From an uncultured Rikenella sp. (lineage in GTDB: Bacteria > Bacteroidota > Bacteroidia > Bacteroidales > Rikenellaceae), in assembly GCA_910577885.1 (NCBI GenBank), contig CAJTNK010000002.1:21580-85579 (forward strand): 64,000 nucleotides of DNA, read 5' to 3'. Positions 8,566-46,350 of this stretch are shown piece after piece (position 1 is the stretch's first letter; every line of letters begins with the position of its first letter). A program made the position numbers and the translations under genes. The notes below the pieces were generated by a model, which did not search any database, was not told the DNA's origin, and saw only the letters and a program-made list of their open reading frames with translations.

Positions 8566-9528
8566 ATGACTACCTACAATAAACCTCCTTTGACATTTCA
8601 ACAACAAGTTGAGTTGTTAAAATCACGCGGTTTAGAAATCACTGATGAACAACGTGCGATTAGACACCTGACAAATATCAGCTATTACAGACTGAGTGCC
8701 TACATGTTGCCTTTTAAAATCAGAGAAAACGGGCAATATACGGATCAATTTATTACTGGCACTAAATGGGAAAACATACATGCTTTATATGTTTTTGATC
8801 GTAAATTACGACTATTAGTATTTGATGCAATTGAGCGAATTGAAATCGGCCTTCGTACACAAATCATATATCAACTCAGTTTAAAATACGGTTCTCATTG
8901 GCACGATCGCTCCGACATATTTAAGCTCAGTTCAAAATACAGCAAAAGAACCGGCAAAACCATAACTACGGATATTTTCCATGATTTACAACAACACATC
9001 CAGACGTTGTTGGTATCTAATCATGCCGAAGTATTTATCAAACACTATAAAGCACGATATGATGAGCCGGTAACTCCGCCCTCATGGATGTCCGTTGAAA
9101 CCTTATATTTCAGCCACCTGTCTAAAATTTGTGAAAATTTACGACAAAGAGCCGATCGGGTAGCTATTGCTTCACGATTTGATCTTCCCCCTGAAATATT
9201 TTGCTCTTGGCTTCACACAATCAATAATATACGCAATATTTGCGCTCACCATGGCAGGCTATGGAATCGAACGATCGACGTTGTTCCTGAAAAATTACAT
9301 GTATCAAAATCCAATGTAAAAATCTGGATAACAGAACCCGAAAGAGTTAAACGTAGTAAGATATATTATTTCTTATGCATGATTAATTATTTGCTTCAGA
9401 CGGTTAATCCGACAAGTGATTTCAAAAATCGTTTGAGCAAACTGCTATACGATTATCCGAATGTCGCACTCTGGGAAATGGGATTTCCTAAACATTGGCA
9501 ACGGGAAACCATGTGGAAAATTGATTGA
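8566..9528 (+). CDS. Abi_2 (AbiD/AbiF-like) abortive-infection family protein (320 aa)
   Basis: N-terminus KPPLTFQQQVELLKSRGLEITDEQRAIRHLTNISYYRLSAYMLPF and the later NNIRNICAHHGRLWN match the Abi_2 signature. The locus is markedly lower in GC than its surroundings. Confidence 0.8.
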   Translation: MTTYNKPPLTFQQQVELLKSRGLEITDEQRAIRHLTNISYYRLSAYMLPFKIRENGQYTDQFITGTKWENIHALYVFDRKLRLLVFDAIERIEIGLRTQIIYQLSLKYGSHWHDRSDIFKLSSKYSKRTGKTITTDIFHDLQQHIQTLLVSNHAEVFIKHYKARYDEPVTPPSWMSVETLYFSHLSKICENLRQRADRVAIASRFDLPPEIFCSWLHTINNIRNICAHHGRLWNRTIDVVPEKLHVSKSNVKIWITEPERVKRSKIYYFLCMINYLLQTVNPTSDFKNRLSKLLYDYPNVALWEMGFPKHWQRETMWKID

Positions 9529-28455: not shown

Positions 28456-30318
28456 TTATCTATCCCAAAAACTGCTGCGACGTCGTTTCCGTTCGCCTTT
28501 GGGCTTGGCCGATTTGCTCGGTTCTGCCTTGGTGGATAATCCGCCCAGGGCGGCCAGCTTTTCGGGCGACAAACGGTCCAAGCCGAGAATCGTTGCCGCG
28601 GCACGCGCGTATATCCGGCAGTCCAGCGGCTCGTTGCGCTCGTATTTCTTAACCCATACGGTATGGCGATAGCCGCGCACGATTTTGACGACCTGCTCTT
28701 CGGCGGTCAGGCCGCGGAAATAGTGTTCGTCGTACTCCGGGAAATGGCAGTAACCCGGCGGCGGGTTCCCGTCGCTGTCTTTTTCGAGCCGCAAATCCGA
28801 ATATAATTCGCCTTTGAGGAGCGACACCCCGATGTTCCAGAGCTTCGTTTTTCCGACACGCTTCCCGGCTTTGGTCACATCGACGGACTTGGGCGGCATG
28901 ACCGCCATTTTCTGCCCGTCCTGTCCCTTGGTCGGAATGACACGAGAACCGGAGAACCGACGGCAAAAAGTATAAACGTGCGTCGTGTTGTACCCGCTGT
29001 CCACGGCCATCAGTTGCATCGGCAGTTCCGCACCGTCCCGACGCTCCCACCGTTCGCCCACCACTTCGGCCAACTCGTCCCACACTTTTTTACCTGCCGT
29101 GTCGCCATCGATCACGCGGTAGTCGATGGAGTAGGAACGTTTGTCGGCACACCATCCCACAATCTCCAGCTCCAGCCGGTCGCGCTGGACGTCCACGCCC
29201 GCCGTGATGAAACAAACATCGTCCGGAACGCTGTTCGTCCGGTAGCTTTCCCGCCGGTTGTACAAATTCTTGAACGGCGGTGCCTCGCCCCGCTCTGCCC
29301 ACGTTTCGCCCAGGGTCGTGTTGACAAACACTTTCAGCCGGGATTGATTGTCTTTCGCCTTGACGAAGTCGGCGGCGATTTCGCCCCATGACTGCCACCC
29401 GAACGGAGAATACAGGGAATTGAGGTGGAACCCGATCGTATCCGGATTGGATTTTTCGGGTTTGCTGGCCACCCACTCGCCGTGCGCGAACATTTCGACC
29501 TTGTGCCGCTCTTCGATCCGCGCGCCGCAATGGACACACTCATAACGGGCCGTTTCCGGACGCCCATCGTCCCACTTCAACTGCGAGAAAGTCAGCGGCT
29601 GCATCCCGCCGCAATACGGACACGGGACATGGTAGTAGTTTTGATCCGTTTCCAGGAACTCGCTTTCGATGACAGACAGCCCGCTAATGGTCGGAGTGCT
29701 GACGATATAGATTTTCTTGTTCGGGAACGTGCGGGTACGGGCGATGGCCAGTTCGATCGGCGACCCTTCGCCATCCAAATCCTGCGGATACGCATCGACT
29801 TCGTCCAGGATCAGGAAACGAATCGGTACGGACCGTAGCCCGGCGGCACTGTTTGCGCCGGCGAACAGCAAAACCCCGCCGTCGAAACTCTTTTGCATGA
29901 TGGTGTTGTTGCTGTCCCTACTCTTGTTCACCGCCACGCGGGCTTTTACCTCCGGGCACATTTCGATAAGGGGATCGATACGGCCTTTGGATAACCGTTT
30001 GACCATCTCTTCCGTGGGTTGAACGAACATAGCTGGGGCCGGCGATATGTGCATGACGTAGCCGATGAAATTTGTTCCGCTTTCGGTTGCCCCGACTTGT
30101 GCCCCCTTCATGAAAACCACCTTCTTGTACGGCTCGTGAATGCTCAGACACTCCATGATTCGCCGTAGGTACGGAGTCCGGTCGGTACGATACCGCCCCG
30201 GCTCTGCCGACGACATGGGGGACAGGTATCGGTACCGGTCGGCCCATTCCGCAACCGAGATGCGCGGAACCGGACGTAGTCCCTGAAAAAATCTGCCTAT
30301 GCTCGTGTAATCACTCAT
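28456..30318 (-). CDS. terminase large subunit, lambda gpA family (620 aa)
   Basis: Walker-type FMKGAQVGATE, LILDEVDAY, and zinc-ribbon-like CPYCGG...CVHCG match the Terminase_GpA layout. Confidence 0.9.
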   Translation of the reverse strand: MSDYTSIGRFFQGLRPVPRISVAEWADRYRYLSPMSSAEPGRYRTDRTPYLRRIMECLSIHEPYKKVVFMKGAQVGATESGTNFIGYVMHISPAPAMFVQPTEEMVKRLSKGRIDPLIEMCPEVKARVAVNKSRDSNNTIMQKSFDGGVLLFAGANSAAGLRSVPIRFLILDEVDAYPQDLDGEGSPIELAIARTRTFPNKKIYIVSTPTISGLSVIESEFLETDQNYYHVPCPYCGGMQPLTFSQLKWDDGRPETARYECVHCGARIEERHKVEMFAHGEWVASKPEKSNPDTIGFHLNSLYSPFGWQSWGEIAADFVKAKDNQSRLKVFVNTTLGETWAERGEAPPFKNLYNRRESYRTNSVPDDVCFITAGVDVQRDRLELEIVGWCADKRSYSIDYRVIDGDTAGKKVWDELAEVVGERWERRDGAELPMQLMAVDSGYNTTHVYTFCRRFSGSRVIPTKGQDGQKMAVMPPKSVDVTKAGKRVGKTKLWNIGVSLLKGELYSDLRLEKDSDGNPPPGYCHFPEYDEHYFRGLTAEEQVVKIVRGYRHTVWVKKYERNEPLDCRIYARAAATILGLDRLSPEKLAALGGLSTKAEPSKSAKPKGERKRRRSSFWDR

Positions 30319-30917
30319 TTCTCCAGTCGTGCGCCGATGTCGGCCAGCTTCTCCAGCTCGTCCGCAATGGCGTTGTAGATGATGCCATGCGCTTTATTGC
30401 GGTTCGCAGCTTCCGCAATCACTTGGTCGATGATCCGATCCGGGATGACCAGCAGGGCGTTTCGTATCTCTTGTGCCGCGGCGAATAGTTCGGCATCTAT
30501 GGTTGCTTTCTCAACAAGCGATCCTTCTTTTTCCGCCAACTCCAGTTCGGCCAAACGCGCCTTGGCGATCTTCTCTTGTAGCTGAGCGTCTTCATAGGTC
30601 AAGGTTATCGCCGGATTTTCGACGTGTTTCTGTTCGGGGGTAATAAAAGCACTGTCGAAAGTTTTGATGTACCCCGCCAAAGTGAGGCGGATTTTACGGG
30701 ATGTCGGATGCGCGGCATTCATGGAGCAGTACCACGTTTTGGCCGCCTCGTGCGGGTCGAGATAGTACGGGGATGTCGCAGCGGTTCCGACACGGGCGGC
30801 AACCTGTTCCGGGATATGTCCGCGTTTGATGGCCGCAGCGATGGTCTTTGAACTTATGCCGGTCAGCTCCTCGAAATCCGATATTTTAACCCATCCCTTG
30901 GGTGCTCTCTTTTTCAT
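30315..30917 (-). CDS. terminase small subunit, Nu1-like (200 aa)
   Basis: N-terminal HTH (VKISDFEELTGISSKTIAAAIKRGHIP) plus the motif AKARLAELELAEKEGSLVEKATIDAELFAAAQEIRNALLVIPDR, typical of Nu1-type small subunits. 4-nt overlap with TerL. Confidence 0.65.
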   Translation of the reverse strand: MKKRAPKGWVKISDFEELTGISSKTIAAAIKRGHIPEQVAARVGTAATSPYYLDPHEAAKTWYCSMNAAHPTSRKIRLTLAGYIKTFDSAFITPEQKHVENPAITLTYEDAQLQEKIAKARLAELELAEKEGSLVEKATIDAELFAAAQEIRNALLVIPDRIIDQVIAEAANRNKAHGIIYNAIADELEKLADIGARLEK

Positions 30918-31030
30918 CCTCCGAACGCTTTCTGCTTCCTATGATAATTTTTCCCGCTAACTAACCGAAAACCGCGGTGCCGACTACCCCCGATGCGGAT
31001 CGCCGGAAAGAACCTACAAAAATTCGCTGC

Positions 31031-31648
31031 TCAACGATTTTGCGCGGCGATTTTAGCGACCCTATCGGTCAATATCCCGCGCACTCGTGCGGTTACTTCG
31101 TTCCCCATATACTGTTGAACATCCTGTGCGACCTCTTCGTTTACACCCATCGTGAAAGGCGATGCGGTGAATAGCTCCGTTATCCGAACCTTGCCTTTGT
31201 CGGTCTTTTCGCGCCCCGGGACAAAACCGACACGTTTCACATATCGGCCCCGGCTGAACACTCCCATGTGGCCGTTCGACATCGTTGCAATGAAAGCATG
31301 TCGAATGGCGACGGTCTTTCCTTTGTGGATGGCTACCGAGATAGAAGAACCGGTTTGTTTGGGCTTGAACGCGAATACCGGCAAACGACTTTCGTTGATT
31401 TTAATACCTCCCCACAATGTAGTACTGTTGGCTTTGGGCGATACAACAGCGACACGGGACAGGTATTTCTGCTTTATGTTGTACGCAGCCTTCACACGCT
31501 TATTTATCCGCGGAATCGATCGAGACAAGGCACTATTGATACCTTGCGCCGTTGCGCGTAATATTTCGTTCGGGGAAAGACTGTTGCGAAATTCCCGCTG
31601 GATGCGTTCGATCTCGCCCCGCTTTTCTTGGGTAAATTCAATCTTCAT
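31031..31648 (-). CDS. minor tail protein Z-like (lambda gpZ family, 205 aa)
   Basis: GINSALSRSIPRINKRVKAAYNIKQKYLSRV...INESRLPVFAF...AIRHAFIATMSNGHMGVFSR parallels lambda gpZ (AINRVASSAISQ...VNRGDLPVIKLG...IPGAFIQQLKNGRWHVMQR). Confidence 0.5.
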   Translation of the reverse strand: MKIEFTQEKRGEIERIQREFRNSLSPNEILRATAQGINSALSRSIPRINKRVKAAYNIKQKYLSRVAVVSPKANSTTLWGGIKINESRLPVFAFKPKQTGSSISVAIHKGKTVAIRHAFIATMSNGHMGVFSRGRYVKRVGFVPGREKTDKGKVRITELFTASPFTMGVNEEVAQDVQQYMGNEVTARVRGILTDRVAKIAAQNR

Positions 31649-31902
31649 CGGTTATCTGCTGTCTTTTCTTGTTCCATGGCCGTCAGTTGTTGTTCGATCT
31701 TGATGTAGGCTTCGACGGCCTTAGGGGTGCGTTTCTTAAGAAATTCAAACCAGCGGCGCGAAACACCGGCTTTGCGGCATAAGCTGGCAATGGAGATTCC
31801 GAGGGCGTTGGCCCGGCGTGTGATCTGTTGCGCCAATTCGTTCGGGGTTGGTTCTGCCATATTGTACGGGGGATTACTTCGTTCCATAATTGGCCGCCAC
31901 AT
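31645..31902 (-). CDS. small HTH protein, possible late-gene regulator (85 aa or shorter)
   Basis: The segment ISIASLCRKAGVSRRWFEFLKK is HTH-like. The true start may be an internal Met (MAEPTPNEL). Confidence 0.4.
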   Translation of the reverse strand: MWRPIMERSNPPYNMAEPTPNELAQQITRRANALGISIASLCRKAGVSRRWFEFLKKRTPKAVEAYIKIEQQLTAMEQEKTADNR

Positions 31903-32401
31903 AACGCAGCATAAATCGTTTGACTGTTCGCAACCATTCCCGGCGACTGGAACCCGCGCCGCTCAGATACGAATCTTTTGCATATTTGCCGCCTCGTTCG
32001 GCGTGTGCCCGATATTCCCGGATTTCACCGGTCAGGCACACACGTAACAGATAGCACCAATCCCATTCAAAGCATAGCGACAGTTTGTCGGCATAACAAA
32101 GCCGCGACGGCGCGACACCGTCTTTGCGGGCATAATACCGGGAATGGTAGCGGGTGAAATCGCCCCATGCCGGCCCGAACAATCGGGCCATGATCCGCGC
32201 GCCGGCCTCAACGTGCGTTTCCCCTTCCGGACCGTCCATATTGGTTTTCCCCCAATATCCCCAGTCATGTACGATGAATGCCATCCATAGCCGCGGGTCT
32301 GTCGGAAAGCCATAGAGCCGCCACCATGCCGCGGCTACCAACAGGGGGTGAATGAATAGGCAGTGCGCCCCGAACAAGAGACTTTTGGTACCGATTTTCA
32401 T
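31874..32401 (-). CDS. hypothetical protein with possible HD-type metal site (175 aa)
   Basis: The FIVHDWGYWGK...ETHVEAGARIM arrangement is H/HD-like. Start at the internal Met, forming a 1-nt overlap with the upstream stop. Confidence 0.35.
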   Translation of the reverse strand: MKIGTKSLLFGAHCLFIHPLLVAAAWWRLYGFPTDPRLWMAFIVHDWGYWGKTNMDGPEGETHVEAGARIMARLFGPAWGDFTRYHSRYYARKDGVAPSRLCYADKLSLCFEWDWCYLLRVCLTGEIREYRAHAERGGKYAKDSYLSGAGSSRREWLRTVKRFMLRYVAANYGTK

Positions 32402-32742
32402 TATTCGTTCAGTTTTTGGACAAATTGATTCAGGCGGGCGCAACCCTCGCAGTTTGGCTGACATCCGCCGTCCTGGAAGTGACACATTTGTTTGAAAGCC
32501 TCAACCGCCTTGGCCTGGCAATCGTTTACGAGGGCAAGATAGCGTTTTCGCTTGTTACAGACATCCGCAAACCGGCAATCATACTTGCCGCTGGTCCAGT
32601 CTCGCAAAAGATAAGTGCGACACTCCTTGCAATATTTGTGTATGTGGGGTTTTGTTTTCACTGTTCGGTTTGTTTCGTTTGTTTCCAGTTCTGCAATCCG
32701 TTTTTCCAACTTTCGATCTTCTTTCTTCTTCGTTTCGCTCAA
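32401..32742 (-). CDS. Cys-rich hypothetical protein (113 aa, 10 Cys)
   Basis: Charged N-terminal helix, then CKEC..x15..C..x5..C, CQ...C, GGCQPNCEGC. No family recognised. Confidence 0.4.
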   Translation of the reverse strand: MSETKKKEDRKLEKRIAELETNETNRTVKTKPHIHKYCKECRTYLLRDWTSGKYDCRFADVCNKRKRYLALVNDCQAKAVEAFKQMCHFQDGGCQPNCEGCARLNQFVQKLNE

Positions 32743-32844
32743 TACAAGATCGGCAACGCCACTGAGGGTAGGGGAAACTGTAATTTGTCGGTTCTAACTT
32801 TGCGCCACAGTGGGGGCATTTTGGTCTTCCGAAAAGTCCCATAG

Positions 32845-33447
32845 TTATTCGATTTTGATTTGCAGGTTTCGGGCCGTTACGTTTCGGCGGATGACGGTCG
32901 CGGCCAGCGGGTTGGTCTCGGCGGCGACGTGCCGGAGTAGCGTCGGGATCCCCCGGAGCCTGTCCGCCGTGTCGAACCGGAAGCGGGGACATAGCCGGTC
33001 GTTGTACTCGGTGATGAGTTCGACCAATGCCAGCGCGATGCTCTTGTACTTTGACACCTCCCTCGGCTCGGATACCCCTTCCACAGAGTCGTCGATGATC
33101 CGGTAGGCCGCTTCGCAGCGTTCGACATAGGGGCGACCGAGGTTTACTTTTCGCGTGAAGACCCGGTAGGCCGCCTCGCTGACCTCCGCCGTGAGGGCGT
33201 CCATGCGGTTCATGGCCTGTTTGGCGGCGTGGCGCAACATCCCGGCCTCCCGGAGCGCGCGGGTCAGGTCGCCCGTTGCGATGAGTAGGCATTGCACAAA
33301 GAGCAACATGTCGACTGCATAGTATGCCTGCTGCTGTTCGTCTACAGTTGGCGGCGATGGCTTCCGGTTCATTTGCTGCTGCCGAAGCAGCTGCAACCGT
33401 CCGTAATGCGTAAAGCGGGCGTGGGTTATCATTTGGTTTTTCATCAT
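32845..33447 (-). CDS. hypothetical helical protein, last gene of the ATGA-coupled modification operon (200 aa)
   Basis: The start forms an ATGA overlap with the radical-SAM stop. No motif recognised. Confidence 0.45.
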   Translation of the reverse strand: MMKNQMITHARFTHYGRLQLLRQQQMNRKPSPPTVDEQQQAYYAVDMLLFVQCLLIATGDLTRALREAGMLRHAAKQAMNRMDALTAEVSEAAYRVFTRKVNLGRPYVERCEAAYRIIDDSVEGVSEPREVSKYKSIALALVELITEYNDRLCPRFRFDTADRLRGIPTLLRHVAAETNPLAATVIRRNVTARNLQIKIE

Positions 33448-34358
33448 TGAAAATATTGTGCACACTTGAACCCCTTTCGTGGCTCAAAGTCGTTGAACTC
33501 AATCGAATTGAACAACCTTTTTTCGTTCACCCATTTCGCGAAATCGCGCTGGAATTGCGTCGGTTTGATATTGTGATCGAAATCTCGATACGGCTGCGCG
33601 AACGGCTCACATCCCGCGGCTCGAAGTTGTTCCACCCGGCGCATCGCGTCCGAAACATCCTTGACCAACACGTAGAACCACATTCGATAAGGTTGCACCC
33701 CGGCTGCCTTGAGGTTCTCAATAGCGCGCATGACCGGTTCTTCGTTCGTCGCGTGGTCATACGCCATGCGGATGTGTCGGATCCATTTCACCCGCGCCAA
33801 CAGCCGGGCGATGTCAGGACATTCGGCAATGATTCGGGCGTCCAATCCTTGGTTGAAGTCTACCCGAATACCGCGCCGGACGATCTCTTCGATTTGCGAC
33901 AGTCCGAAATCCGAAGCAAGCACGTTGTTATCAAGTAATATGGCCTGTTTGCGGTCTGCGATGAACTCCGACAACTCGGCGTGTGGGCGTATCGCACCCT
34001 CTTTCCGTGGAACCACGCACCACGGGCAGCGGTTCGGGCATCCGCGCGTCAGAAAGCCATACGCAGCCCGGAACTCCGGATACAACGAGTAATCCGGGCA
34101 GGTGTGTTCGATCTCTTCCGGCAAGGTGGTTTCGTAATCCCGATACCCGGTTCCACCCTGGACAATCCGGTCGGCGGACACAAAGAAGGTGCGTTCGGTC
34201 GAGAAGGTGAATACTTTCGACTTGTACAACACGTCGTAATGTCCGAACTCCCGCGCCCACTCCACAGCATCTCCCTGCGCCTTGTGCCATGCCGACAACT
34301 TCATCAACGCAAGATTCGGGAAATGGTGTCCGTCTATGTCGATCAGTCCGATTCTCAT
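33444..34358 (-). CDS. radical SAM enzyme with N-terminal B12-binding-like Rossmann segment (304 aa)
   Basis: CPNRCPWC (CxxxCxxC) at aa ~106-113 in GFLTRGCPNRCPWCVVPRKEG. The N-terminus MRIGLIDIDGHHFPNLALMKLSAWHKAQG resembles the cobalamin-binding-type domain of class B radical-SAM enzymes. Confidence 0.75.
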   Translation of the reverse strand: MRIGLIDIDGHHFPNLALMKLSAWHKAQGDAVEWAREFGHYDVLYKSKVFTFSTERTFFVSADRIVQGGTGYRDYETTLPEEIEHTCPDYSLYPEFRAAYGFLTRGCPNRCPWCVVPRKEGAIRPHAELSEFIADRKQAILLDNNVLASDFGLSQIEEIVRRGIRVDFNQGLDARIIAECPDIARLLARVKWIRHIRMAYDHATNEEPVMRAIENLKAAGVQPYRMWFYVLVKDVSDAMRRVEQLRAAGCEPFAQPYRDFDHNIKPTQFQRDFAKWVNEKRLFNSIEFNDFEPRKGFKCAQYFQ

Positions 34359-35638
34359 TTCCCATTACGCTCAAATAAATAATTCACATCTAACTCCCAC
34401 AGATCGTTCCAACGCCACAAAATCCACTTGATAACCTCTACCGTCCAGCCGTTGCCCAGCAGGCGGTATATCTGCGAGTCGCTGACCACCCATTCGTACC
34501 ACGTCGGAATCGTCTGCAACCGGGCGCATTCGGTCGGTGTCAGGCGGCGGATGCTGCGATCTGTGAGTATTTTAGCTTGCAAATTTCCGCCTGTGCCGGC
34601 ATTTAATGTCGGACTCTTGCCGGCCGGGTCATAAATTCGATTTTGCTGTCGGGGCTGACCTCCAAACTCTCGACTGGGGTTCAGTTGGACGACCATCGGA
34701 ATATGCCCGCCGCCCATACCTGCCGAAGCCAAAATCGGCGTACTTTTATTAACCGACACCGTGGCGTGTGCTTGGTTGGAACTTACACAAAGCAGGTTGT
34801 TTCGTTCCCATCCATTCGCCGATAAGGTCGGAACCTTGCCCACACGCTCACCACCCTTATTATAGCCCCGCGGACGTTGTACAATGAACGTTCCCGTCCA
34901 GCTGGCGACGCCTTTTGCGGTCAGACACACCGCCTTTTTGCTTCCGTCGTTCAAGTCCGTGTGTCTTCCAAGACGTTTCGGATCGGTGATATAGCGCGCC
35001 ATCTTCTCGCTGACATTATATTTCTCCGGCACCTCCGTTTCAAGGATGTCCCGAAGAAACACCCCCCGGTCTTCCGGTTGCGGGATATCGCTGTGCAGCT
35101 CTCCAAACAGACCTTCTCGTCGCGTCCGAATGTCTGTCCAGTACCATCTGTCGCGGTTCTGCGCGCTAACGAGCGACGAGTTGATCCGGACGGGAAATAC
35201 GCCGACGCGCTCCGAAATCACCCGCAGGTATTCCCGCTTCATATTGACGTTTTCGAGTAGGAAACGGACATCGGGGTTATGCTGCCGAACGTGGTTCAGA
35301 ATATCAACGAAAACAAAAAACAACCGGCTGCGGGGATCGTCGAACGCCATCTGCTTGCCGGCGAAACTGAATCCCTGACAAGGCGATCCGGCCAACACGA
35401 GGTCGATTCCCGCCCAATCGACCTCCCAATCCCGCCACCGCTCCACGTCGCCGAGCTGCACGGTGTCCGGAAAATTGTGCTGCGTCTGTCGGATCGGATA
35501 CTTGTCGATCTCGGCGGCGTAATAGATCTCCGGCTCCACACCGAGTTCCCGCAGGGCGATTTGTCCGCAGCTCATACCATCAAATAGGCTTAAAATCCGC
35601 ATTCTTTTGCAGTGTGGTTCGGGTGGCTTCATGGTCAT
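34355..35638 (-). CDS. DNA (cytosine-5)-methyltransferase (427 aa)
   Basis: Motif I LSLFDGMSCG, motif IV GSPCQGFSFAGK, motif VI FLLENV. C-terminal RRLTPTECARLQTIP and LLGNGWTV. Start fixed by an ATGA overlap at 35635-35638. Confidence 0.9.
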   Translation of the reverse strand: MTMKPPEPHCKRMRILSLFDGMSCGQIALRELGVEPEIYYAAEIDKYPIRQTQHNFPDTVQLGDVERWRDWEVDWAGIDLVLAGSPCQGFSFAGKQMAFDDPRSRLFFVFVDILNHVRQHNPDVRFLLENVNMKREYLRVISERVGVFPVRINSSLVSAQNRDRWYWTDIRTRREGLFGELHSDIPQPEDRGVFLRDILETEVPEKYNVSEKMARYITDPKRLGRHTDLNDGSKKAVCLTAKGVASWTGTFIVQRPRGYNKGGERVGKVPTLSANGWERNNLLCVSSNQAHATVSVNKSTPILASAGMGGGHIPMVVQLNPSREFGGQPRQQNRIYDPAGKSPTLNAGTGGNLQAKILTDRSIRRLTPTECARLQTIPTWYEWVVSDSQIYRLLGNGWTVEVIKWILWRWNDLWELDVNYLFERNGK

Positions 35639-38133
35639 GCCGTTTGAATCATGTCGAAAAGCGTAGGAGCATTGCGGTTTTGTTCTGCCTCTCGGAGGTA
35701 AGCCAACGAATCCCGCCAATAATCCGGATTCAGCTCCGTAGAAAGACCGAAACGCCCCATCTTGACAGCCGTGTACGGTACCGTGCCGATCCCTCCGAAC
35801 GGATCATAAACCACCTCGCCCGGATTGCTGTACCGATTGATGATCCGCTCCACGATGTCCAGCTGGAGCGGGCAGATGTGGTTTTGGAGCCTCTTTTGCT
35901 TCTGTCGGCTGTTGAGCGTCCGCATCCGGACGACATCGTCCCACACCCATTCCGACTTGCTGACCGGGTCCACTGCCATAAACGTCGCCGGCAACCGCCC
36001 TGCCGCATCCATCCGTTTGGCCAACTCCACGTGAGCCGCATAGTCGTACACCAGTTCCCAGGATTGGAGGCGAAAGAATCGGCGCGCCTTGTCCACGTCC
36101 ATGGCCGCAAACTCATCCGCCGACAAGAGCCGGTTGCCCGAACTGTTCCAAAAGGCGTGCGCGTCGATCTGCCATTGCGCCCGTGTGTACTCCTCTTTCG
36201 ACTTGCATACCGGAACATCCGCGTATGCTTTGCTCCCGTCCGTGGGCCGCTTGCGGAACAAAAGAATGTATTCCGGACACCCCACCCCCATTTTTGAGCC
36301 GTCTTTGCACTGCTCCGACCATCCGAGGCGGTAAGTCTGGTTGTTCTCCCGCACCACGTCCGTAACTACCGTAATCATCCCCACCATGTGAAACCCGTGT
36401 TTGAGGTAGTGCGAAATGCACTCCGAATGGAACGGGTCGATGGTCGGCATCCCGGTACCCGTGGCGTTGCCGAATAATACCCGGTCCTTGACATGGACCG
36501 CCGCGATCCGCCCCGGCTGGAGCACCCGCAACAGTTCCGGCGTCAGGTAATCCATCTGCTCGAAGAACTTGGCGTTGTTCTCGTTGTGGCCGAAGTCGTT
36601 GTAACTGGGCGTATATTCGTAATGGTTGCTGAACGGGATCGAAGTGTGGATCAGCGCGACCGAGTTGTCGGCCATCCGGGCCGTCTCGATCGTCGTGTCG
36701 TTGTGAATGGCCCGATAGTAGCGGCCGACCTCTTCCCGGCGTTCGACGCCGATAGAACGTTGCATTTTCTCGTAAATGTGAGTGGTGTTCAATCCGTTTT
36801 CCTGAATAATCCGCGTCATCTGCTCGACCAAATAGTCATGCTGTTTCCATTTCTTCTGCAAGGCTTTGAGGATTTCGCCCTCGCTTTCGGCATAGATGAT
36901 GTGTATTTCGACCTCCTCGGTTTGCAGGAAACGATACACGCGGTGGACAGCCTGAATGAAATCGTTGAACTCGTAACCGATGCCCGTGAAGATCGCCTTA
37001 TGGCAATGCCGCTGAAAGTTGCATCCCTGGCCGCTAATGCTGGGTTTGGTGGCCAAATATTTGATCCGTCCGTGCGAAAAATCGACGATTCTCTGTTCTC
37101 GCTGTTCGAGGTCTTGCGAACCGTACACCTCCGTGATCTCCGGGATGGCCGCTTTGAGTGCATGGCGTTCCGCTTCGAGGTCGTGCCAGATTACGTAATG
37201 ACTCTCCGGATCGGCCTCGATGATCTCCCGGGTCTTGGCGATCCGGGCCGCCATGCTGTCGCGCTTCTCGCGGGCCGCCTCTTTGAGGCCCAACGCCGCA
37301 TCGCGGAACAGCTGGCTTTGGCCGAACTTGTCCACCAATCCCGCATCGTGCTCGACCGCTACTTCATGGTAGATTACCCGCATCTCCGGCAGGTCATACC
37401 CTGCGTCGTCGAAACCCAGGTCGGACGGCTTGGTGATGAACAGAGCCCACGACGACAGCCACAACCAAAATTCACGCTCCTTGTGCGGATAGAGGGTCAG
37501 GTTGTTGGCCTTGGTGCTGTCGCGTTGGAAAAAGCGCGTCAGAGCCTGGCCGGTGTCCATGATACCGAGGAAACCGGCATAATGGATCAGCTCTTTGTAC
37601 TTGTTTGGCGACGGGGTGGCCGTGCAGACGAACCGGTATTTGACATCGCGGAACTTCGACAGGAAAGTTTGGTAGGTCTTCGAGCCGAACGACCGCAATA
37701 TCGATGCTTCGTCCAGGCAAACGACCGTATAGTCGTTCGGGTTTATATCCCCGTCCCGCATCCGCTCGTAATTGGTAATCTGTACGGTGGCGGTGCTGGC
37801 CAGCGATTCGGCCCGCGTGCGGACGTACTCGACCGTCAGCCCAAGCAGATTCCGGGCGTCCTGCGTAAACTCCTGCTTGACACCGAGCGGGCAGACGATC
37901 AGCGCGCGCCCTCCCTCCCGGGCGGTAATGATTCGGCATATCTCCAGCTGCTGGAGCGTCTTGCCAAGTCCGAAGCTCTCGAACAAGGCGCGGCAACCGC
38001 CGCGAACGGCCCATTTGACCGCTTCGCGCTGGTGCGGTTTGAGGATCGGGGATAATTCTCTCTCCTCAACTTCAAATCCGCTCTGTACGGCCAAATTGAT
38101 CTTGCTGTTCAAAAAATCCGAATAGTTTTTCAT
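35635..38133 (-). CDS. SNF2-family helicase fused to a beta-class N6A/N4C DNA methyltransferase (832 aa)
   Basis: N-terminal half: LKPHQREAV, GLGKTLQ, CLDEAS, TATPSPN, and C-terminal helicase motifs (SGQGCNFQ...). C-terminal half: IHTSIPFS (motif IV position) and VVYDPFGGIGTVPYTA (motif I), in the order typical of the N-4/N-6 methylase family. Confidence 0.8.
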   Translation of the reverse strand: MKNYSDFLNSKINLAVQSGFEVEERELSPILKPHQREAVKWAVRGGCRALFESFGLGKTLQQLEICRIITAREGGRALIVCPLGVKQEFTQDARNLLGLTVEYVRTRAESLASTATVQITNYERMRDGDINPNDYTVVCLDEASILRSFGSKTYQTFLSKFRDVKYRFVCTATPSPNKYKELIHYAGFLGIMDTGQALTRFFQRDSTKANNLTLYPHKEREFWLWLSSWALFITKPSDLGFDDAGYDLPEMRVIYHEVAVEHDAGLVDKFGQSQLFRDAALGLKEAAREKRDSMAARIAKTREIIEADPESHYVIWHDLEAERHALKAAIPEITEVYGSQDLEQREQRIVDFSHGRIKYLATKPSISGQGCNFQRHCHKAIFTGIGYEFNDFIQAVHRVYRFLQTEEVEIHIIYAESEGEILKALQKKWKQHDYLVEQMTRIIQENGLNTTHIYEKMQRSIGVERREEVGRYYRAIHNDTTIETARMADNSVALIHTSIPFSNHYEYTPSYNDFGHNENNAKFFEQMDYLTPELLRVLQPGRIAAVHVKDRVLFGNATGTGMPTIDPFHSECISHYLKHGFHMVGMITVVTDVVRENNQTYRLGWSEQCKDGSKMGVGCPEYILLFRKRPTDGSKAYADVPVCKSKEEYTRAQWQIDAHAFWNSSGNRLLSADEFAAMDVDKARRFFRLQSWELVYDYAAHVELAKRMDAAGRLPATFMAVDPVSKSEWVWDDVVRMRTLNSRQKQKRLQNHICPLQLDIVERIINRYSNPGEVVYDPFGGIGTVPYTAVKMGRFGLSTELNPDYWRDSLAYLREAEQNRNAPTLFDMIQTA

Positions 38134-38137
38134 AGTC

Positions 38138-38611
38138 TCAACGTTTTTCGTCTATCAATCGCCCGACAAGGGCACTGCATTCGTCCGGGTTTCGCGGCAG
38201 CTCGATTCGGGTTGTCATGCCCGCTTCGGCGAATTGCCGTTTTAAGAGTTTGATGCGTAACGTACCTTGTTGCGTCTTGTGGCCTTTGGTGTCGATCACC
38301 ATGTCGTGATCTGGCAACCAAAAGTCTGTGGTGTATGTTATGGGTCGTACCGTTTCGCCATTGTACCGGAATCCCTCTCGCAAGACGTACCGTTTCTGAA
38401 ACTCGAAACCGATTCCGTGCAAGGTCAGCAGGTCATACATGAAGCGTTCGACCTTGCTGGCGAAAACAACCCCGTCCCGCTCGATTCGGGTGGCATTCCG
38501 GACCTTCCGATTGCCGTTCGGACTTCCGCTTGACCACATCGCCCGAAGCTCCTCAACAGTCATCGTTTGGCTCTCCTTCCGGTTGCTCCTCTTCATCTTC
38601 GATCGGTTCAA
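38138..38611 (-). CDS. DUF1064-type PD-(D/E)xK nuclease-fold protein (157 aa)
   Basis: The pattern FASKVERFMYDLL...ITYTTDFWLPDHDMVIDTKG (S..E...Y..L; Y.aDF; v.E/D.KG) matches phage DUF1064. Confidence 0.6.
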   Translation of the reverse strand: MNRSKMKRSNRKESQTMTVEELRAMWSSGSPNGNRKVRNATRIERDGVVFASKVERFMYDLLTLHGIGFEFQKRYVLREGFRYNGETVRPITYTTDFWLPDHDMVIDTKGHKTQQGTLRIKLLKRQFAEAGMTTRIELPRNPDECSALVGRLIDEKR

Positions 38612-38819
38612 AAGACATGTCCGTTGCCGTACGGTGCGAGACTATCGCCCCTTCCTCTTCGAGTGTCGCCAATTGCTCGTTGATGCCTCCGGTTCCTCCG
38701 GCTGCCACATATTCCTGCCATATTTCCCGCCACAGGGCGAAAACCGGATCTTGTCGGGCTTCCCGCTTGCGGGCGACGATGCGGCGGATGATGTCGAGTA
38801 TTTCCATGGCATTACGCAT
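38553..38819 (-). CDS. small acidic hypothetical protein (88 aa)
   Basis: Internal Met of track ORF 38553..39005. Overlaps the replication gene stop by 8 nt. Acidic tail EPIEDEEEQPEGEPNDD. Confidence 0.35.
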   Translation of the reverse strand: MRNAMEILDIIRRIVARKREARQDPVFALWREIWQEYVAAGGTGGINEQLATLEEEGAIVSHRTATDMSFEPIEDEEEQPEGEPNDDC

Positions 38820-39696
38820 TGGGGGAGATGTCTTGTCGACGGGTGAATAGCTTTTTGCCGTTCGGGGTCGTCGCCACCGGTCCGAAATCGTCCATCGAAT
38901 ACCGCCCCGTGGATACCAGGTCGCAAACCTCGCTGTACGTGTACTGCTTCCCCGCTGCGGCCTCTTTGCGCTCACGTAGAATCGCATCCCGACCGGCAAA
39001 GGCAACGAAGGTGGAGTAAGCCGACTTGTTCTTGGTCGCCCCCTTGTTGTCCATGGCCATCACAATCCGCCGTATATCCTCGTCGGCGTATTTCCCAGCC
39101 AGCCATTCGGCCTGCTGCTCGGTCAGCGGGTCGGCCATGCGCTGCACGGTCGGATAGTTCGCTTCGATCCAGCTCAAAATTTCCGTCGCGCGCGATTTTT
39201 TCTTACGTTCTGTGGAAAAATCTGTGTGTGTGATATTCTTACATTCTATATTCTTTTCATTCTTACATTCTTGTATAGTGGTCACTTGCCGGTCAGTCGT
39301 TGTGCGCTCGATGGTCGGTCGTTGGTCATCGGTTGGGCGACGGTTGGCCGTTGGCTGGTCATTCGGCTGGTCGGCTCCTTGGTAGATCGCCCAGTTACAG
39401 ACTGAAATTAAGGTGCTTGTGTTGGTCGGTCGTTGTTCGATCTGTTGTTCACTCTCAAAGAGTTTCAGAATCCGGCGCACCTTACTTTCGTCTATGCGGA
39501 ACATTTCGGCGATTTTCCGCCGCCCAGTAATCAGCTGCCCCGGTTGCAGGGTAATTCGCTTGCCGTTGAACATGGCATCCGTGGGCGTATGCGCGGCGTT
39601 ATGCAGCAGATAGCCCCATACGGCGTAATGGTCCGCATCTTTGCAGACTATCGGATTATCGAGTATTGCCCTGTATGATTTGATCCAACCTTCCAT
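38812..39696 (-). CDS. phage replication protein / replisome organiser-like (294 aa)
   Basis: The N-terminal winged-helix-type pattern MEGWIKSYRAILDNPIVCKDADHYAVWGYLLHNA...LQPGQLITGRRKIAEMFRIDESKVRRILKLFE is common in phage replication initiators. The linker is T/Q/P/D-rich. Confidence 0.55.
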   Translation of the reverse strand: MEGWIKSYRAILDNPIVCKDADHYAVWGYLLHNAAHTPTDAMFNGKRITLQPGQLITGRRKIAEMFRIDESKVRRILKLFESEQQIEQRPTNTSTLISVCNWAIYQGADQPNDQPTANRRPTDDQRPTIERTTTDRQVTTIQECKNEKNIECKNITHTDFSTERKKKSRATEILSWIEANYPTVQRMADPLTEQQAEWLAGKYADEDIRRIVMAMDNKGATKNKSAYSTFVAFAGRDAILRERKEAAAGKQYTYSEVCDLVSTGRYSMDDFGPVATTPNGKKLFTRRQDISPNA

Positions 39697-41379: not shown

Positions 41380-42474
41380 ATGGATTTTCAAGACATTATA
41401 CGGCAGTTGGTGGAACGCATCGAAAAGATGAAAGATAACGTTCTGACGGAAGAGGCGACAAAAAACGCTTTTATTATGCCGTTTATCAATGCGTTGGGTT
41501 ACGACGTTTTCAATCCGACCGAAGTCGTTCCCGAGTTCATCTGCGACATAGGCATCAAGAAAGGGGAGAAGATCGATTATGCCATTATGCAGGACGGGAA
41601 GCCTGTCATTCTTATCGAGTGCAAGCATTGCTTGCAGGATCTTAGCCTGCACGATAATCAATTGTTGCGGTACTTCACCGTTTCGCCGGCCAAATTCGGT
41701 GTGTTGACCAATGGTATCATCTATCGATTCTATACCGATCTGGAGAAAGAGAATGTGATGGATGAAAAACCGTTCTTGGAGGTCAATTTGTTGGAATTGC
41801 GGGACACACAGATCGAGGAGTTGCGCAAGTTCCATAAGTCGTATTTCGATGTGGATAACATCATGAATACGGCAAGCGAACTCAAATATACGAATGAGTT
41901 GAAACGGCTGATCGCTTCCGAGATGAGTAATCCGACGCCGGAATTTGTGAAGTTTTTCGCTCGGCAGGTGTATAGCGGCCAGATGAAAGAGCGGGCAATG
42001 GAGCAGTTTACCGGCTTGATGAAGCGTGCCGCCTCGCAGTGGAAAAACGACATTATCAATGAACGGTTGAAAGCCGCTTTAAATAATGACGTTCAAGTTT
42101 CGACCACCTCTTCAGCGGAAAAATCGGAACCAGAGGCGGAACATTGCGAAGATTCCGACAACGGTATCGTAACTACTGCGGAAGAATTGCAGGGCTATTA
42201 TATCGTTAAGTCTATTCTGGCGCAAAAAGTATCTTTGAATCGAGTTGTCGGGCGCGATACGAAGTCGTATTTCGGGGTTCTGCTGGATGACAACAACCGG
42301 AAGCCGATTTGTCGATTGTGGTTCAACCGGAGCAATAAATACGTCGGCACATTCGATGCGGAGAAGAATGAGACTCGACATTTGGTCAACAGCCTGGACG
42401 AGATTTATACTTTGGCGGAACCTATCTGTGCGGCTGTCGATTATTACGAAGGGACGACCAACGGCGGGGAGTAA
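41380..42474 (+). CDS. HsdR-N-type (type I restriction enzyme R N-terminal domain) PD-(D/E)xK protein with uncharacterised C-terminal domain (364 aa)
   Basis: LTEEATKNAFIMPFINALGYDVFNPTEVVPEF...GEKIDYAIMQDGKPVILIECK...FGVLTNGIIYRFY is the HSDR_N-type signature (D..E.K core). Confidence 0.7.
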   Translation: MDFQDIIRQLVERIEKMKDNVLTEEATKNAFIMPFINALGYDVFNPTEVVPEFICDIGIKKGEKIDYAIMQDGKPVILIECKHCLQDLSLHDNQLLRYFTVSPAKFGVLTNGIIYRFYTDLEKENVMDEKPFLEVNLLELRDTQIEELRKFHKSYFDVDNIMNTASELKYTNELKRLIASEMSNPTPEFVKFFARQVYSGQMKERAMEQFTGLMKRAASQWKNDIINERLKAALNNDVQVSTTSSAEKSEPEAEHCEDSDNGIVTTAEELQGYYIVKSILAQKVSLNRVVGRDTKSYFGVLLDDNNRKPICRLWFNRSNKYVGTFDAEKNETRHLVNSLDEIYTLAEPICAAVDYYEGTTNGGE

Positions 42475-42494: not shown

Positions 42495-43235
42495 ATGCAA
42501 AGTATGATTGAATTTCGCCAGCGGATATACCAGATCGTAGAAAAGAGCGAGGGGCACAGCGGACTCAGTTACGGATACGACATATTCATGTCCGTTTGCA
42601 TCTGCCTGAGCTTGTTGCCGCTGTTCTTTCGGCAGCAGTATCCGGTGTTTTACTATTTCGACCTCTTCACCGTTATTGTCTTTATCCTTGACTATATCGC
42701 CCATTGGATGACCGCCGACCTGCGGCGGACTTACTCGCATCGGTGGGCGGCGTTCTTGCTGTATCCGGTTACGCCGATGGGGATTGTGGATTTGTTGTCC
42801 ATTTTGCCCGGCGTCAATCTGCTGCCGAACGGGTACAAGATTTTCCGGGTGTCGCGGCTGCTGAAGATCGTGCGGGTGTTCAAATTCTTTCGGTACTCCG
42901 AGCAATTCCAGCTGCTGTTTCGCGTCCTGCGGAACGAACGGAAGGTGCTGTTGTCGGTGTTGATGATCGCCGTGTTTTACATCATCGTCACCGCGCTCGT
43001 CATGTTCAATGCCGGGCAGGGAAGTTCTCATTTCGACTCTTACTTCGATGCGTTGTATTGGGCCACGACGACCTTGACGACGGTAGGATACGGCGATATT
43101 TGCCCGGCGAATGACTTGGGGCGGGTGATTAGTATGCTTTCTGCGTTGTTCGGCGTGGCGATCATTGCGCTGCCGTCGGGGATTATCACGGCTTCTTACC
43201 TGGATGAATTGCGCAAGGAGCGGGACGGAAAATAG
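42495..43235 (+). CDS. 6TM voltage-gated-type K+ channel (246 aa)
   Basis: Selectivity filter TTLTTVGYGD. S4-like helix FRVSRLLKIVRVFKFFR with R/K at every third position (6 charges). S5, pore helix and S6 are recognisable. Confidence 0.85.
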   Translation: MQSMIEFRQRIYQIVEKSEGHSGLSYGYDIFMSVCICLSLLPLFFRQQYPVFYYFDLFTVIVFILDYIAHWMTADLRRTYSHRWAAFLLYPVTPMGIVDLLSILPGVNLLPNGYKIFRVSRLLKIVRVFKFFRYSEQFQLLFRVLRNERKVLLSVLMIAVFYIIVTALVMFNAGQGSSHFDSYFDALYWATTTLTTVGYGDICPANDLGRVISMLSALFGVAIIALPSGIITASYLDELRKERDGK

Positions 43236-43316: not shown

Positions 43317-43401
43317 TGGTGCCCAGGACAGGAATCGAACCTGCACGCCTTGCGGCACACGCACCTGAAACGTGCGCGTCTACCTATTCCGCCACCTGGG
43401 C
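43317..43401 (-). tRNA. tRNA-Leu (anticodon CAG), type II with long variable arm, CCA encoded
   Basis: Folded by hand: acceptor GCCCAGG/CCTGGGC. Anticodon stem CACGT/GCGTG with loop TT-CAG-GT. Variable arm TGCCGCAAGGCGT. T arm GCAGG-TTCGATT-CCTGT. Discriminator A plus CCA. Confidence 0.85.
43319..43339. repeat. attR core (within the tRNA-Leu 3' end)
   Basis: GTGCCCAGGACAGGAATCGAA, partner of 6919-6939. Confidence 0.65.
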
Positions 43402-44242: not shown

Positions 44243-44427
44243 ACCGAGCGAGAATTCAGAGTACAAAAATAGCGAAAAATCGGGTAAACGCGTCACTCCG
44301 CCCCGGGTCGGGCGAGATGACAGAAAAAGGTGACATTTTGGCAGCCCTGCGTTTTTGGCACAACAGTTGCAGGTTAGGCGGATACCGAAACGAAAATAAA
44401 GTAACAAATAAAAAACCAATCAATACT

Positions 44428-46350
44428 ATGGGAAAAATTATCGGTATCGACCTGGGGACGACCAACTCCTGCGTCTCGGTCATGGAAGGCAACGAACCCG
44501 TTGTGATTCCGAACAGCGAGGGGCACCGGACCACACCGTCGATCGTGGCTTTCACCGAAAACGGCGAACGCAAGGTGGGGGATCCGGCCAAACGACAGGC
44601 GATTACCAATCCGAAACGGACCATTTTTTCGATCAAACGGTTCATGGGCGAGACCTACGCCCAGGTGAAAGGCGAGCTCGACCGCGTGCCGTATGAGGTG
44701 AAAGACGAACACGGCGTGCCGCGGATCGCCATCGACGGACGGTTGTACAGTCCGCAGGAAATCTCGGCCATGGTGCTTCAGAAGATGAAGAAAACCGCCG
44801 AAGATTACCTGGGTCAGGAAGTGACGGAAGCGGTGATCACCGTACCGGCTTACTTCAACGACGCACAGCGGCAGGCTACCAAGGAGGCCGGCGAGATTGC
44901 CGGGTTGAAAGTGGCCCGGATCATTAATGAGCCGACTGCTGCGGCTTTGGCCTACGGGCTGGAGAAGTCAGACAAGGACATGAAGATCGCCGTTTACGAC
45001 CTCGGGGGGGGGACGTTCGACATCTCGATCCTGGAATTGGGAGACGGGGTGTTCGAAGTGAAGTCGACGAACGGGGACACGCACCTCGGGGGCGACGACT
45101 TCGACCACGTGATTATCGACTGGCTGGCCGGCGAGTTCGAAGCGCAGCACCATGTGGACCTGCGAAAGGATCCGATGGCCTTGCAGCGGTTGAAAGAAGC
45201 CGCCGAAAAGGCGAAAATCGAGCTTTCGAGCGCCACTTCGACGGAGATCAACCTGCCGTATATCATGCCGATCGACGGCATTCCGCAGCACCTGGTGACG
45301 ACCCTCACGCGGGCCAAGTTCGAACAGCTGGCCGACAAGCTGATCCACGCCACGATCGAACCGTGTCGGAAGGCACTGGAAGATGCCGGGCTGACCGCTT
45401 CGCAGATCGACGACGTTATCTTGGTGGGGGGGTCGACCCGTATTCCGGCCATCCAGCAGGTGGTGAAAGAGTTCTTCGGCAAGGAGCCGTCGAAAGGGGT
45501 GAACCCGGACGAAGTGGTGGCCATCGGGGCGGCCATTCAGGGCGGGGTATTGACCGGTGAGGTGAAAGATGTCCTGCTGTTGGACGTTACCCCGCTGTCG
45601 CTCGGGATCGAGACGATGGGGGGCGTGATGACCAAGCTGATCGACGCCAACACGACCATTCCGACCCGCAAGTCGGAGGTCTTCAGCACCGCTTCGGACA
45701 ACCAGCCTTCGGTCGAAATCCACGTCTTGCAGGGCGAACGACAAATGGCACGGGATAATAAGACCATCGGCCGGTTCCACCTGGACGGCATTCCGGCGGC
45801 GCCGCGGGGCGTACCGCAGATCGAAGTGACCTTCGACATCGACGCCAACGGGATTCTGAACGTCTCGGCCAAGGACAAAGGAACCGGCAAGGAACAAAGC
45901 ATCCGGATCGAAGCTTCGTCGGGGTTGACCGACGCCGAAATCCAGCGCATGCGGGACGAGGCCAAGGCCAATGAGGCGAAAGACAAAGAGGAACGCGAAC
46001 GGATCGACAAGATCAATGGCGCCGACTCGCTGATTTTCAGCACGGAAAAGCAGCTCAAGGAGTACGGCGACAAGATTCCGGCTGATAAGAAGTCGGCCAT
46101 CGAGACGGCACTGAACGGTCTGAAAGAGGCGCACAAGGCCCAGAACCTGGCCGACATCGACAAGTACTCGGAAGGTCTGAATGCGGCTTGGCAGGCGGCT
46201 TCGCAGGACATCTACAATGCGAACAACGCCGGCGGCGGAGCTGCCGGCGGACCGGGAGCCGGTGCTGCTGGCGCGGGCGCGGGCAATGCCTCGCAGAGCC
46301 AGCAGCAGGACGAAGGTCCGCACGACGTCGAATTCGAAGAGGTCAAATAA
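44428..46350 (+). CDS. dnaK: molecular chaperone DnaK (Hsp70, 640 aa)
   Basis: [35 protein letters not shown] and the full-length Hsp70 layout. Start at internal Met. Confidence 0.97.

Follow-up and report, generated by a model that had tools for sequence, protein, structure and literature searches.

A 64,000-nucleotide stretch of DNA from an uncultured Rikenella sp. (contig CAJTNK010000002.1, positions 21,580 to 85,579; hereafter the window) carries a phage gene for a radical S-adenosylmethionine (SAM) protein, here called rSAM. The gene stands in a series of four minus-strand open reading frames (ORFs), encoding a predicted SNF2 helicase-N6/N4 methyltransferase of 832 aa (35635..38133), a predicted C5 cytosine methyltransferase of 427 aa (Dcm; 34355..35638), the 304-aa rSAM protein with its CPNRCPWC motif (33444..34358), and a helical protein of 195-200 aa (32845..33447). 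A sequence-only reading of this DNA had treated the four genes as a dedicated operon in which rSAM elaborates the product of Dcm. We favor a different explanation, to which we assign a probability of about 0.6: Dcm and rSAM would be self-sufficient cassettes in an accessory slot of a phage, the cassettes would share a role in DNA protection, and rSAM would modify a nucleic acid by itself. It is very probable that these genes make up a modular slot and do not form a pathway. A DNA-modification or anti-restriction role for rSAM that is independent of Dcm is possible, at somewhat less than even odds.

The slot is evident from blastn comparison of the window with a relative, L164. Homology stops at 35634 and resumes exactly at 33432, and both breakpoints fall at gene ends. 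The intervening segment (33433..35634, assigned to neither strand) is a variable slot of 2.2 kb between the SNF2-methylase and the helical protein, and in the window it is filled by Dcm and rSAM. In L164-L167, where the flanks match the window with 95% DNA identity over the SNF2-methylase and 90% over the helical protein, the slot contains a 137-aa ORF and a phosphoadenosine phosphosulfate (PAPS)-reductase-family gene, with neither rSAM nor Dcm. Three further relatives carry rSAM in other settings. The L084 slot contains Dcm, rSAM (89% identical to that of the window) and PAPS_reduct, next to an SNF2-methylase with 98% protein identity; the L175 slot contains PAPS_reduct and rSAM (82% identical); and the L171 slot has only the first 46 nt of Dcm, along with an intact rSAM (86% identical). 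A second backbone (SNF2-Lin1244_N-DUF6633) has a slot that again lies directly upstream of a helical-protein homologue. There the slot is occupied by rSAM alone in L173/L174, and by a 558-aa Dcm alone in L168. This variation across relatives shows Dcm, rSAM, and the PAPS-reductase-like gene to be cassettes of one slot that come and go independently of each other.

The nearest relatives retain an intact rSAM after losing Dcm. In addition to L171, this is seen in P0001, whose rSAM is 91% identical to that of the window and carries a 20-residue remnant of a different C5 methylase (LFSGIGG) in frame at its N-terminus. On this 1.3-kb contig the predicted protein begins MTHGSLFSGIGG..., which corresponds to motif I of a C5 methylase unlike the window Dcm, fused 20 residues before the rSAM start. 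An upstream methylase was thus almost wholly deleted, with rSAM kept.

The sequence-only reading placed the four minus-strand ORFs correctly, in both position and length, and the ATGA tetranucleotide that it reported is present at all three junctions. Its interpretation of each ATGA as a stop/start overlap holds less well, since two of the three use start codons that homologues do not. The Dcm/rSAM overlap is the only one with a start codon confirmed by homologues. The 427-aa length of Dcm is counted from the ATG within the ATGA overlap; alternative starts exist at 35632 (the second ATG) and 35602, and the Dcm remnant of L171 begins at the second ATG, equivalent to 35632. The likely true start of the helical protein is the ATG at 33432, 11 nt past the rSAM stop and at the point where homology with L164 resumes. 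This ATG encodes window Met6, and 18 of 21 aligned homologues start at the same MIT; among the others, two start 4-5 residues upstream, one starts at the next residue, and one is truncated.

Further ATGA overlaps are found downstream, at 31645-31648 and between terS and terL (30315-30318). Upstream, a DUF1064 or Holliday-junction-resolvase-like gene (38138..38611, minus strand; PF06356 at 57.9 bits, phrog_190), syntenic in L164-L167, ends only 4 nt ahead of the SNF2 start and belongs to the same co-directional run. The four-gene boundary is therefore arbitrary, and the overlaps are not special to these genes. A dedicated four-gene operon can be set aside, as the cluster runs on at both sides, ATGA recurs elsewhere, and relatives swap the inner genes. 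The four genes are a slice of a longer co-directional phage early/middle cluster, with the order DnaD-like loader, DUF1064, the four genes, small ORFs, a gpZ-like tail-completion gene, terS, lambda-type terL, portal, and capsid. The rSAM gene lies between the replication and packaging modules. The nearest genome is that of an uncultured Rikenella metagenome-assembled genome (MAG). The locus has an ordinary phage architecture, a backbone with an accessory slot.

The gene upstream of the slot, a backbone gene kept in related prophages, encodes a predicted helicase-methyltransferase fusion. Both predicted domains score above threshold in one polypeptide, PF00176 (SNF2) at 41.6 bits against a cut-off of 24.9 over residues 34-196, and PF01555 (N6_N4_Mtase) at 57.8 bits against 26.7 over residues 492-807. 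The protein matches phrog_16 with E=7e-125. Its methylase motif IV reads T-S-I-P-F (window 36640-36660, residues about 496-500), where the canonical form in N6/N4 methylases is (D/S)-P-P-(Y/F). Two homologues (L140:5435-7927 and L155:5488-8001), one from an Agathobaculum MAG and the other from a Bacteroides MAG, keep the SIPF variant, so it is a trait of the family and not a sign of decay. Both loci have the SNF2-methylase immediately upstream of rSAM. In the second backbone, the SNF2 helicase of L173 (L173:1818-4532) has 904 aa versus 553 aa in L168, together with a weak match to Hom_end (homing endonuclease/intein), which suggests an intein insertion.

Within the slot, the 427-aa protein matches PF00145 (131.9 bits, cut-off 22), TIGR00675 (119.9 bits, cut-off 100.65) and phrog_116, and its translation contains the motifs GSPCQGFS, LLENV (ENV), QNRDR and GNGW. 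A scan of ten genes (38812-39696, 38138-38611, 30315-38133) revealed no restriction-endonuclease domain. The protein is therefore best described as a putative orphan C5 cytosine DNA methyltransferase.

Downstream of the slot, the 200-aa protein has no match in Pfam, PHROGs, NCBIfam, or PADLOC. Its AlphaFold2 (AF2) model is an all-helical bundle with a mean confidence (pLDDT) of 85.8 and no fold match (best E=0.67). Homologues form 23 clusters only, and the named ones are all from Rikenella. The gene directly upstream of it is PAPS_reduct, Dcm, or rSAM, depending on the relative. A role as a partner or regulator of rSAM was rejected on the grounds of these 23 clusters, the three different upstream genes, and the model without a fold match. 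It is more plausibly a lineage-restricted backbone gene that bounds the slot on its downstream side. The gene that follows it (window 32404-32842) is mosaic: 32404-32793 alone matches residues 117-253 of the 253-aa gene at that position in L164 (63% identity), and the window ORF from 32842 is short, zinc-ribbon-like (CPHC...CRSC), and in a different frame from the part that matches L164.

The rSAM protein matches phrog_9298 over its full length (positions 1-304 of 305, E=4.5e-103). Its score against Radical_SAM PF04055 is 23.6 bits, under the Pfam cut-off of 29.5 (E=6.7e-5, residues 103-233), and some close homologues have a precomputed PF04055 match. The cluster motif C107-x3-C111-x2-C114 (C-P-N-R-C-P-W-C) holds the sole invariant cysteines in an alignment of 21 sequences; none lies outside CX3CX2C. 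In the AF2 model (pLDDT 88.7), an N-terminal domain of about residues 1-75 with a beta-alpha-beta-beta-beta arrangement and a single helix precedes an alternating beta/alpha core at residues 99 to 256, a partial TIM barrel, and the C-terminus is a short helical segment. No close solved structure turned up in the Protein Data Bank (PDB) searches. The top PDB fold matches include the radical-SAM enzymes BlsE (probability 1.00, E=4e-3, TM 0.36) and EpeE (probability 0.99), all with weak E-values (4e-3 and above). Among viral predicted structures there is a looser, whole-length likeness to COG1032, 'B12-binding-like' and MtaB-like proteins (TMq 0.51-0.58). A PDB sequence search with the single protein returned noise only, whereas the family profile found MiaB as its best match (E=0.007), followed by RimO, with the similarity limited to the region of the cluster motif and the next LLxxN strand. 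Taken together, the motif and profile matches suggest that rSAM is a divergent relative of the COG1032/methylthiotransferase branch.

The sequence-only reading identified the SNF2/N6-N4, C5 methylase, and radical-SAM domains correctly, but its description of rSAM as a B12-type or class B enzyme finds no support. The Pfam scan gave no match to the B12-binding domain PF02310 at E<=0.01, a profile of the N-terminal domain alone matched no PDB chain, and the top 50 PDB fold matches include no class B structure. A class B or cobalamin-dependent enzyme was rejected as unsupported on these three counts. A methylthiotransferase was rejected as well, as rSAM lacks auxiliary-cluster cysteines and has no Pfam match to a TRAM domain. 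The protein is thus without the features that define either group, and a methyl-transfer mechanism is not indicated. The fold searches that the same reading had called for produced weak radical-SAM enzyme matches for rSAM, but nothing for the 200-aa protein.

Two defense-related identities for rSAM were also considered. PADLOC matched neither rSAM nor the 200-aa protein to any of its defense families (0 matches), leaving rSAM unsupported as part of a known defense system. The Ophion rSAM defense system has a three-gene rSAM/PHP/PRTase architecture, which is not seen here.

The family to which rSAM belongs is very large and broadly distributed. At 50% clustering it has at least 4,329 representatives (E<=1e-3), 791 of them at E<=1e-30, and at 90% clustering at least about 8,000 clusters. 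Cultured or assembled viruses with a member include phages of Bacteroides and Phocaeicola, the Clostridium tetani phage phiCT453B, Marinitoga camini virus 1, and viruses of Methanomassiliicoccales; members are also encoded in the genomes of Bacteroidales, Oscillospiraceae, further Clostridia, Collinsella, Spirochaetales, and a Paceibacterota MAG. The carriers include phages, prophages and conjugative elements, with hosts that span Bacteroidales, Clostridia, Thermotogae and Methanomassiliicoccales, all of which we take to be anaerobes. Such a broad host spread favors a universal target such as nucleic acid. The 90%-identity cluster of one member, P0056 (its representative being a 293-aa rSAM homologue), also lists 145-199-aa proteins of the YopX family (TIGR01671), which suggests either that the cluster is heterogeneous or that rSAM and YopX genes are often adjacent or fused in Alistipes prophages. 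In L175 and L168, YopX genes are present near the rSAM slot.

To survey the neighbors of this family, ORFs were called in 160 loci, which were dereplicated at 85% rSAM identity to 78; the resulting counts are approximate lower bounds, and the window's own Dcm was dropped owing to an 85-nt ORF overlap. The commonest neighbor cluster within four genes occurs in 7/78 loci. Pfam matches among immediate neighbors include C5 methylase (1 upstream, 5 downstream), N6_N4 methylase (4), D12 Dam (1), PAPS_reduct (3 upstream and 3 downstream, in 6/78 loci) and SNF2 (3 upstream, 1 downstream), along with genes of plasmids or integrative and conjugative elements: RepA_N/DUF6017 (4), TraG/type IV secretion, ArdA (once), and Tad3 (once). 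C5 methylase, N6N4 methylase, and PAPS_reduct together fill 16/154 flanking positions versus 17/1117 positions at a distance of two to ten genes (odds ratio 7.5, p=2e-7). The sequence-only reading had counted a lack of linkage between rSAM homologues and methyltransferases elsewhere as a ground for refuting its proposal, and such linkage was found. For C5 methylases alone, the co-occurrence that it had suggested surveying is present statistically (odds ratio 5.6, p=0.004) but not as a rule, as a C5 methylase adjoins rSAM in only 6-7 of the 78 dereplicated loci and is missing beside rSAM in 71. The adjacent C5 methylases lie on either side of rSAM and mostly share 22-45% identity with one another, with one group of three at 59-66%. 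N6N4-rSAM-C5 sandwiches are present in two distant loci (L107 and L003). In sum, rSAM has no obligate partner and is found preferentially among DNA-modification genes.

Some longer family members are fusions, each seen once, to a phage Dam domain (P0276), to ParB_N and HTH_ParB (P0169), or to ERF. The fusions to Dam and ParB, if they are genuine, hint at a DNA target by Rosetta-stone logic. In P0169 (L178:5001-7439), a Cys-rich linker joins rSAM to ParB_N and HTH_ParB, and the contig also has a relaxase and ParA.

The explanation we favor can be laid out as follows. The region would be part of the early/middle operon of a temperate phage with a lambda-like terminase and a Rikenella-type host. 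The SNF2-N6/N4-methylase fusion and the helical protein of ~195 aa are backbone genes, and the slot between them, via recombination at gene boundaries, takes up any mix of an orphan C5 methylase, a phrog_9298 rSAM, and a DndC-like PAPS-reductase-family protein. The genes would be co-transcribed and are as tightly packed as the rest of the phage, and their overlaps would reflect phage genome economy instead of a special stoichiometric complex. The slot cargo most likely shields replicating phage or plasmid DNA from host restriction or defense, with the methylases protecting by methylation. The rSAM protein would bind one [4Fe-4S] cluster via C107, C111 and C114 and cleave SAM to give the 5'-deoxyadenosyl radical. 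It would then most likely modify a nucleic-acid target alone, with DNA as the leading candidate; 5-methylcytosine (5mC), cobalamin, and an auxiliary cluster would not be needed.

A more specific and more novel form of this explanation is unlikely. In this form, rSAM would be a stand-alone, oxygen-independent DNA modifier of mobile elements in anaerobes, evading restriction or defense without a partner gene. It might, for example and equally doubtfully, abstract a hydrogen atom from the C5-methyl group of a pyrimidine (thymine or 5mC), or from some other site on a base or sugar, to yield a new modification. With no better odds, it could be considered the anaerobic counterpart of the phage TET/5-methylpyrimidine dioxygenases.

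Several points weigh against our preferred explanation. No DNA-binding domain is recognizable in the 304-aa protein, and the rSAM fold search lacks an informative functional neighbor (best E=4e-3, TM 0.36). About 80% of rSAM loci have no recognizable DNA-modification gene adjoining rSAM, and the association seen in the rest could simply mean that these genes gather in the same accessory-gene hot-spot. Each fusion was seen only once and could be an artifact of assembly or gene calling. The neighbor survey used a crude longest-ORF caller and HMMs (hidden Markov models) iterated from single seeds.

The first of these points also serve a rival explanation, in which rSAM does not act on nucleic acid at all. 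It might be an auxiliary metabolic gene, an activase for a glycyl-radical or other host enzyme, a SAM consumer, or a prophage defense or superinfection-exclusion factor in a generic hot-spot. The protein has neither a conserved partner nor a recognizable DNA-binding domain, most loci lack a DNA-modification neighbor, hot-spots gather unrelated cargo, and any Fe-S radical enzyme would be expected to be confined to anaerobes. We consider this explanation improbable. The rSAM gene is in line in a lytic early/middle operon and is not a separately transcribed moron, no glycyl-radical enzyme or metabolic gene recurs near it, and the neighbor enrichment and fusions are all DNA-related. The absence of a PADLOC match also speaks against it.

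A second rival keeps the nucleic acid and changes its type. Here rSAM would modify tRNA or rRNA in the style of MiaB/RimO/MtaB or RlmN/Cfr, tuning translation or blunting tRNA-targeting defenses. In its favor is the profile match to MiaB and then RimO (E=0.007 for MiaB), which covers RGCxxxCxxCxVP and LLxxN. The viral fold matches (TMq 0.51-0.58), which include an MtaB-like methylthiotransferase and COG1032 proteins, point the same way, and in LoVEphage an RtcB gene lies 1.2 kb downstream of rSAM. However, the invariant cysteines include none for a methylthiotransferase auxiliary cluster, nor the two extra ones of RlmN/Cfr, and a TRAM domain is not matched. The neighbors and fusion partners are DNA enzymes (Dam, ParB, C5 and N6/N4 methylases), not RNA enzymes. 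RNA as the target is thus quite unlikely.

The third rival is the one closest to the sequence-only reading: Dcm would make 5mC, and the translationally coupled rSAM would convert 5mC or a neighboring position to a hypermodified base, as an anaerobic analogue of a C5 methyltransferase (C5-MT)/TET pair. Dcm and rSAM are adjacent with an ATGA overlap in both the window and L084, C5 methylases are enriched 5.6-fold at rSAM flanks (p=0.004), a second and different C5-MT once lay upstream of the rSAM in P0001, and C5-MT/TET pairs provide a precedent for elaboration of 5mC (PMC8256090). Against this, 71 of the 78 loci lack an adjacent C5 methylase. Dcm is deleted and rSAM intact in L171 and P0001, and one and the same slot holds rSAM in L173 but Dcm in L168. 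The adjacent C5-MTs are mostly too divergent from one another, and too variable in position, to resemble the co-evolving C5-MT/TET pairs. Finally, rSAM has neither a detected cobalamin domain nor extra conserved cysteines for methyl transfer. We regard this explanation as very unlikely. The stoichiometric coupling of Dcm and rSAM claimed in the sequence-only reading finds no support in these observations, nor does the tie to Dcm in its DNA-modification or anti-restriction proposal. The broad form of that proposal is supported by the enrichment of methylases and DndC-like genes at rSAM flanks and by the Dam and ParB fusions.

The weakest rival, in which rSAM and the PAPS-reductase-like (DndC/SspD-family) protein cooperate in a sulfur-insertion type of DNA modification, has in its favor the six loci with PAPS_reduct as an immediate neighbor, L084 and L175, an rSAM core closest to the methylthiotransferases, and the role of DndC/SspD as sulfur-transfer components of phosphorothioation, with a radical-SAM mechanism proposed for Dnd (PMC12707154); it is hardly tenable, as most rSAM loci, the window included, have no PAPS_reduct gene, L164-L167 have PAPS_reduct without rSAM, auxiliary-cluster cysteines are missing, and DndA/D/E-like genes are not seen among rSAM neighbors.

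Outside the phage run, the window encodes an Abi_2 abortive-infection-like protein (8566-9528), an HSDR_N-domain (PD-(D/E)XK-like) protein (41380-42474, Pfam), an ion-channel protein (42495-43235), tRNA-Leu(CAG) (43317-43401), and DnaK (44317-46350). The ORF at 41380-42474 had been a candidate integrase beside the tRNA-Leu gene, and was rejected when Pfam assigned it an HSDR_N domain. No integrase was identified among the ORFs scanned in the window.

A new DNA modification or anti-restriction activity of anaerobes might reasonably be sought in the rSAM family. The family is very large, its carriers range from phages and prophages to conjugative elements in gut and other anaerobes and extend to archaeal viruses, and DNA methylases and DndC-like genes are statistically associated with it. 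If rSAM does modify DNA, it would have a single known precedent among radical-SAM enzymes that install a DNA modification, and it could account for escape from restriction in anaerobic microbiomes. Even otherwise, the finding corrects an error that is easily made, the reading of gene overlap as a sign of a pathway.

How does this compare with known systems? The closest likeness is to other members of phrog_9298, including LoVEphage QVQ57207.1 (a Bacteroides phage), Clostridium phage phiCT453B gp19, and Methanomassiliicoccales virus vir215_00033. These share 33-48% identity with the window rSAM and are alike in size, in the cluster motif, and in position between replication and packaging, and the window protein is a member of this family. 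Public records label the family only as 'radical SAM protein' ('radical SAM domain protein') or 'hypothetical'. Our literature search found no paper characterizing a phage or plasmid rSAM of the phrog_9298 type, and the LoVEphage paper does not mention the gene.

The radical-SAM enzymes named as working on DNA are spore photoproduct lyase (SPL) and gp53 of Pseudomonas phage M6 (PMC8989533). M6 gp53 is an SPL-like radical-SAM isomerase of thymidine hypermodification that needs a 5-hydroxymethyldeoxyuridine (5-hmdU) kinase, an aGPT-Pplase, and a pyridoxal phosphate (PLP) enzyme (Lee et al., PMC8989533). Like M6 gp53, the window rSAM is phage-encoded. No 5-hmdU kinase, aGPT-Pplase, or PLP-enzyme domain was found in the ten genes scanned around the slot, to which this search was confined; no SPL structure is among the top 50 fold matches of rSAM, and tblastn with rSAM did not retrieve phage M6.

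In domain order, rSAM resembles the COG1032/'B12-binding-like + radical SAM' proteins and MiaB/RimO/MtaB, in which an N-terminal alpha/beta domain is followed by the radical-SAM core with RGCxxxCxxCxVP and LLxxN. It differs from both in its N-terminal domain, which has only ~75 residues and one helix, and in the lack of auxiliary-cluster cysteines and TRAM.

Phage C5-MT/TET (5mC dioxygenase) pairs are consistently linked and have nearly congruent trees (Burke et al. 2021, PMC8256090). As in those modules, a phage C5 methylase stands here beside a possible second enzyme, amid other DNA-modification genes. Unlike in those modules, the methylase and rSAM come and go separately, the methylases next to rSAM are not related to each other, and the role of second enzyme would fall to a predicted Fe-S radical enzyme.

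The slot as a whole is reminiscent of the orphan methyltransferase islands of phages and plasmids, among whose genes are ParB-methylase fusions and DndC-like PAPS reductases, in that interchangeable DNA-modification genes lie just after the replication module. To our knowledge, a radical-SAM enzyme is not a recognized component of such islands. ParB-methylase fusions are common on phages and plasmids, and the rSAM-ParB_N-HTH and rSAM-Dam fusions mirror those of the orphan methyltransferase islands.

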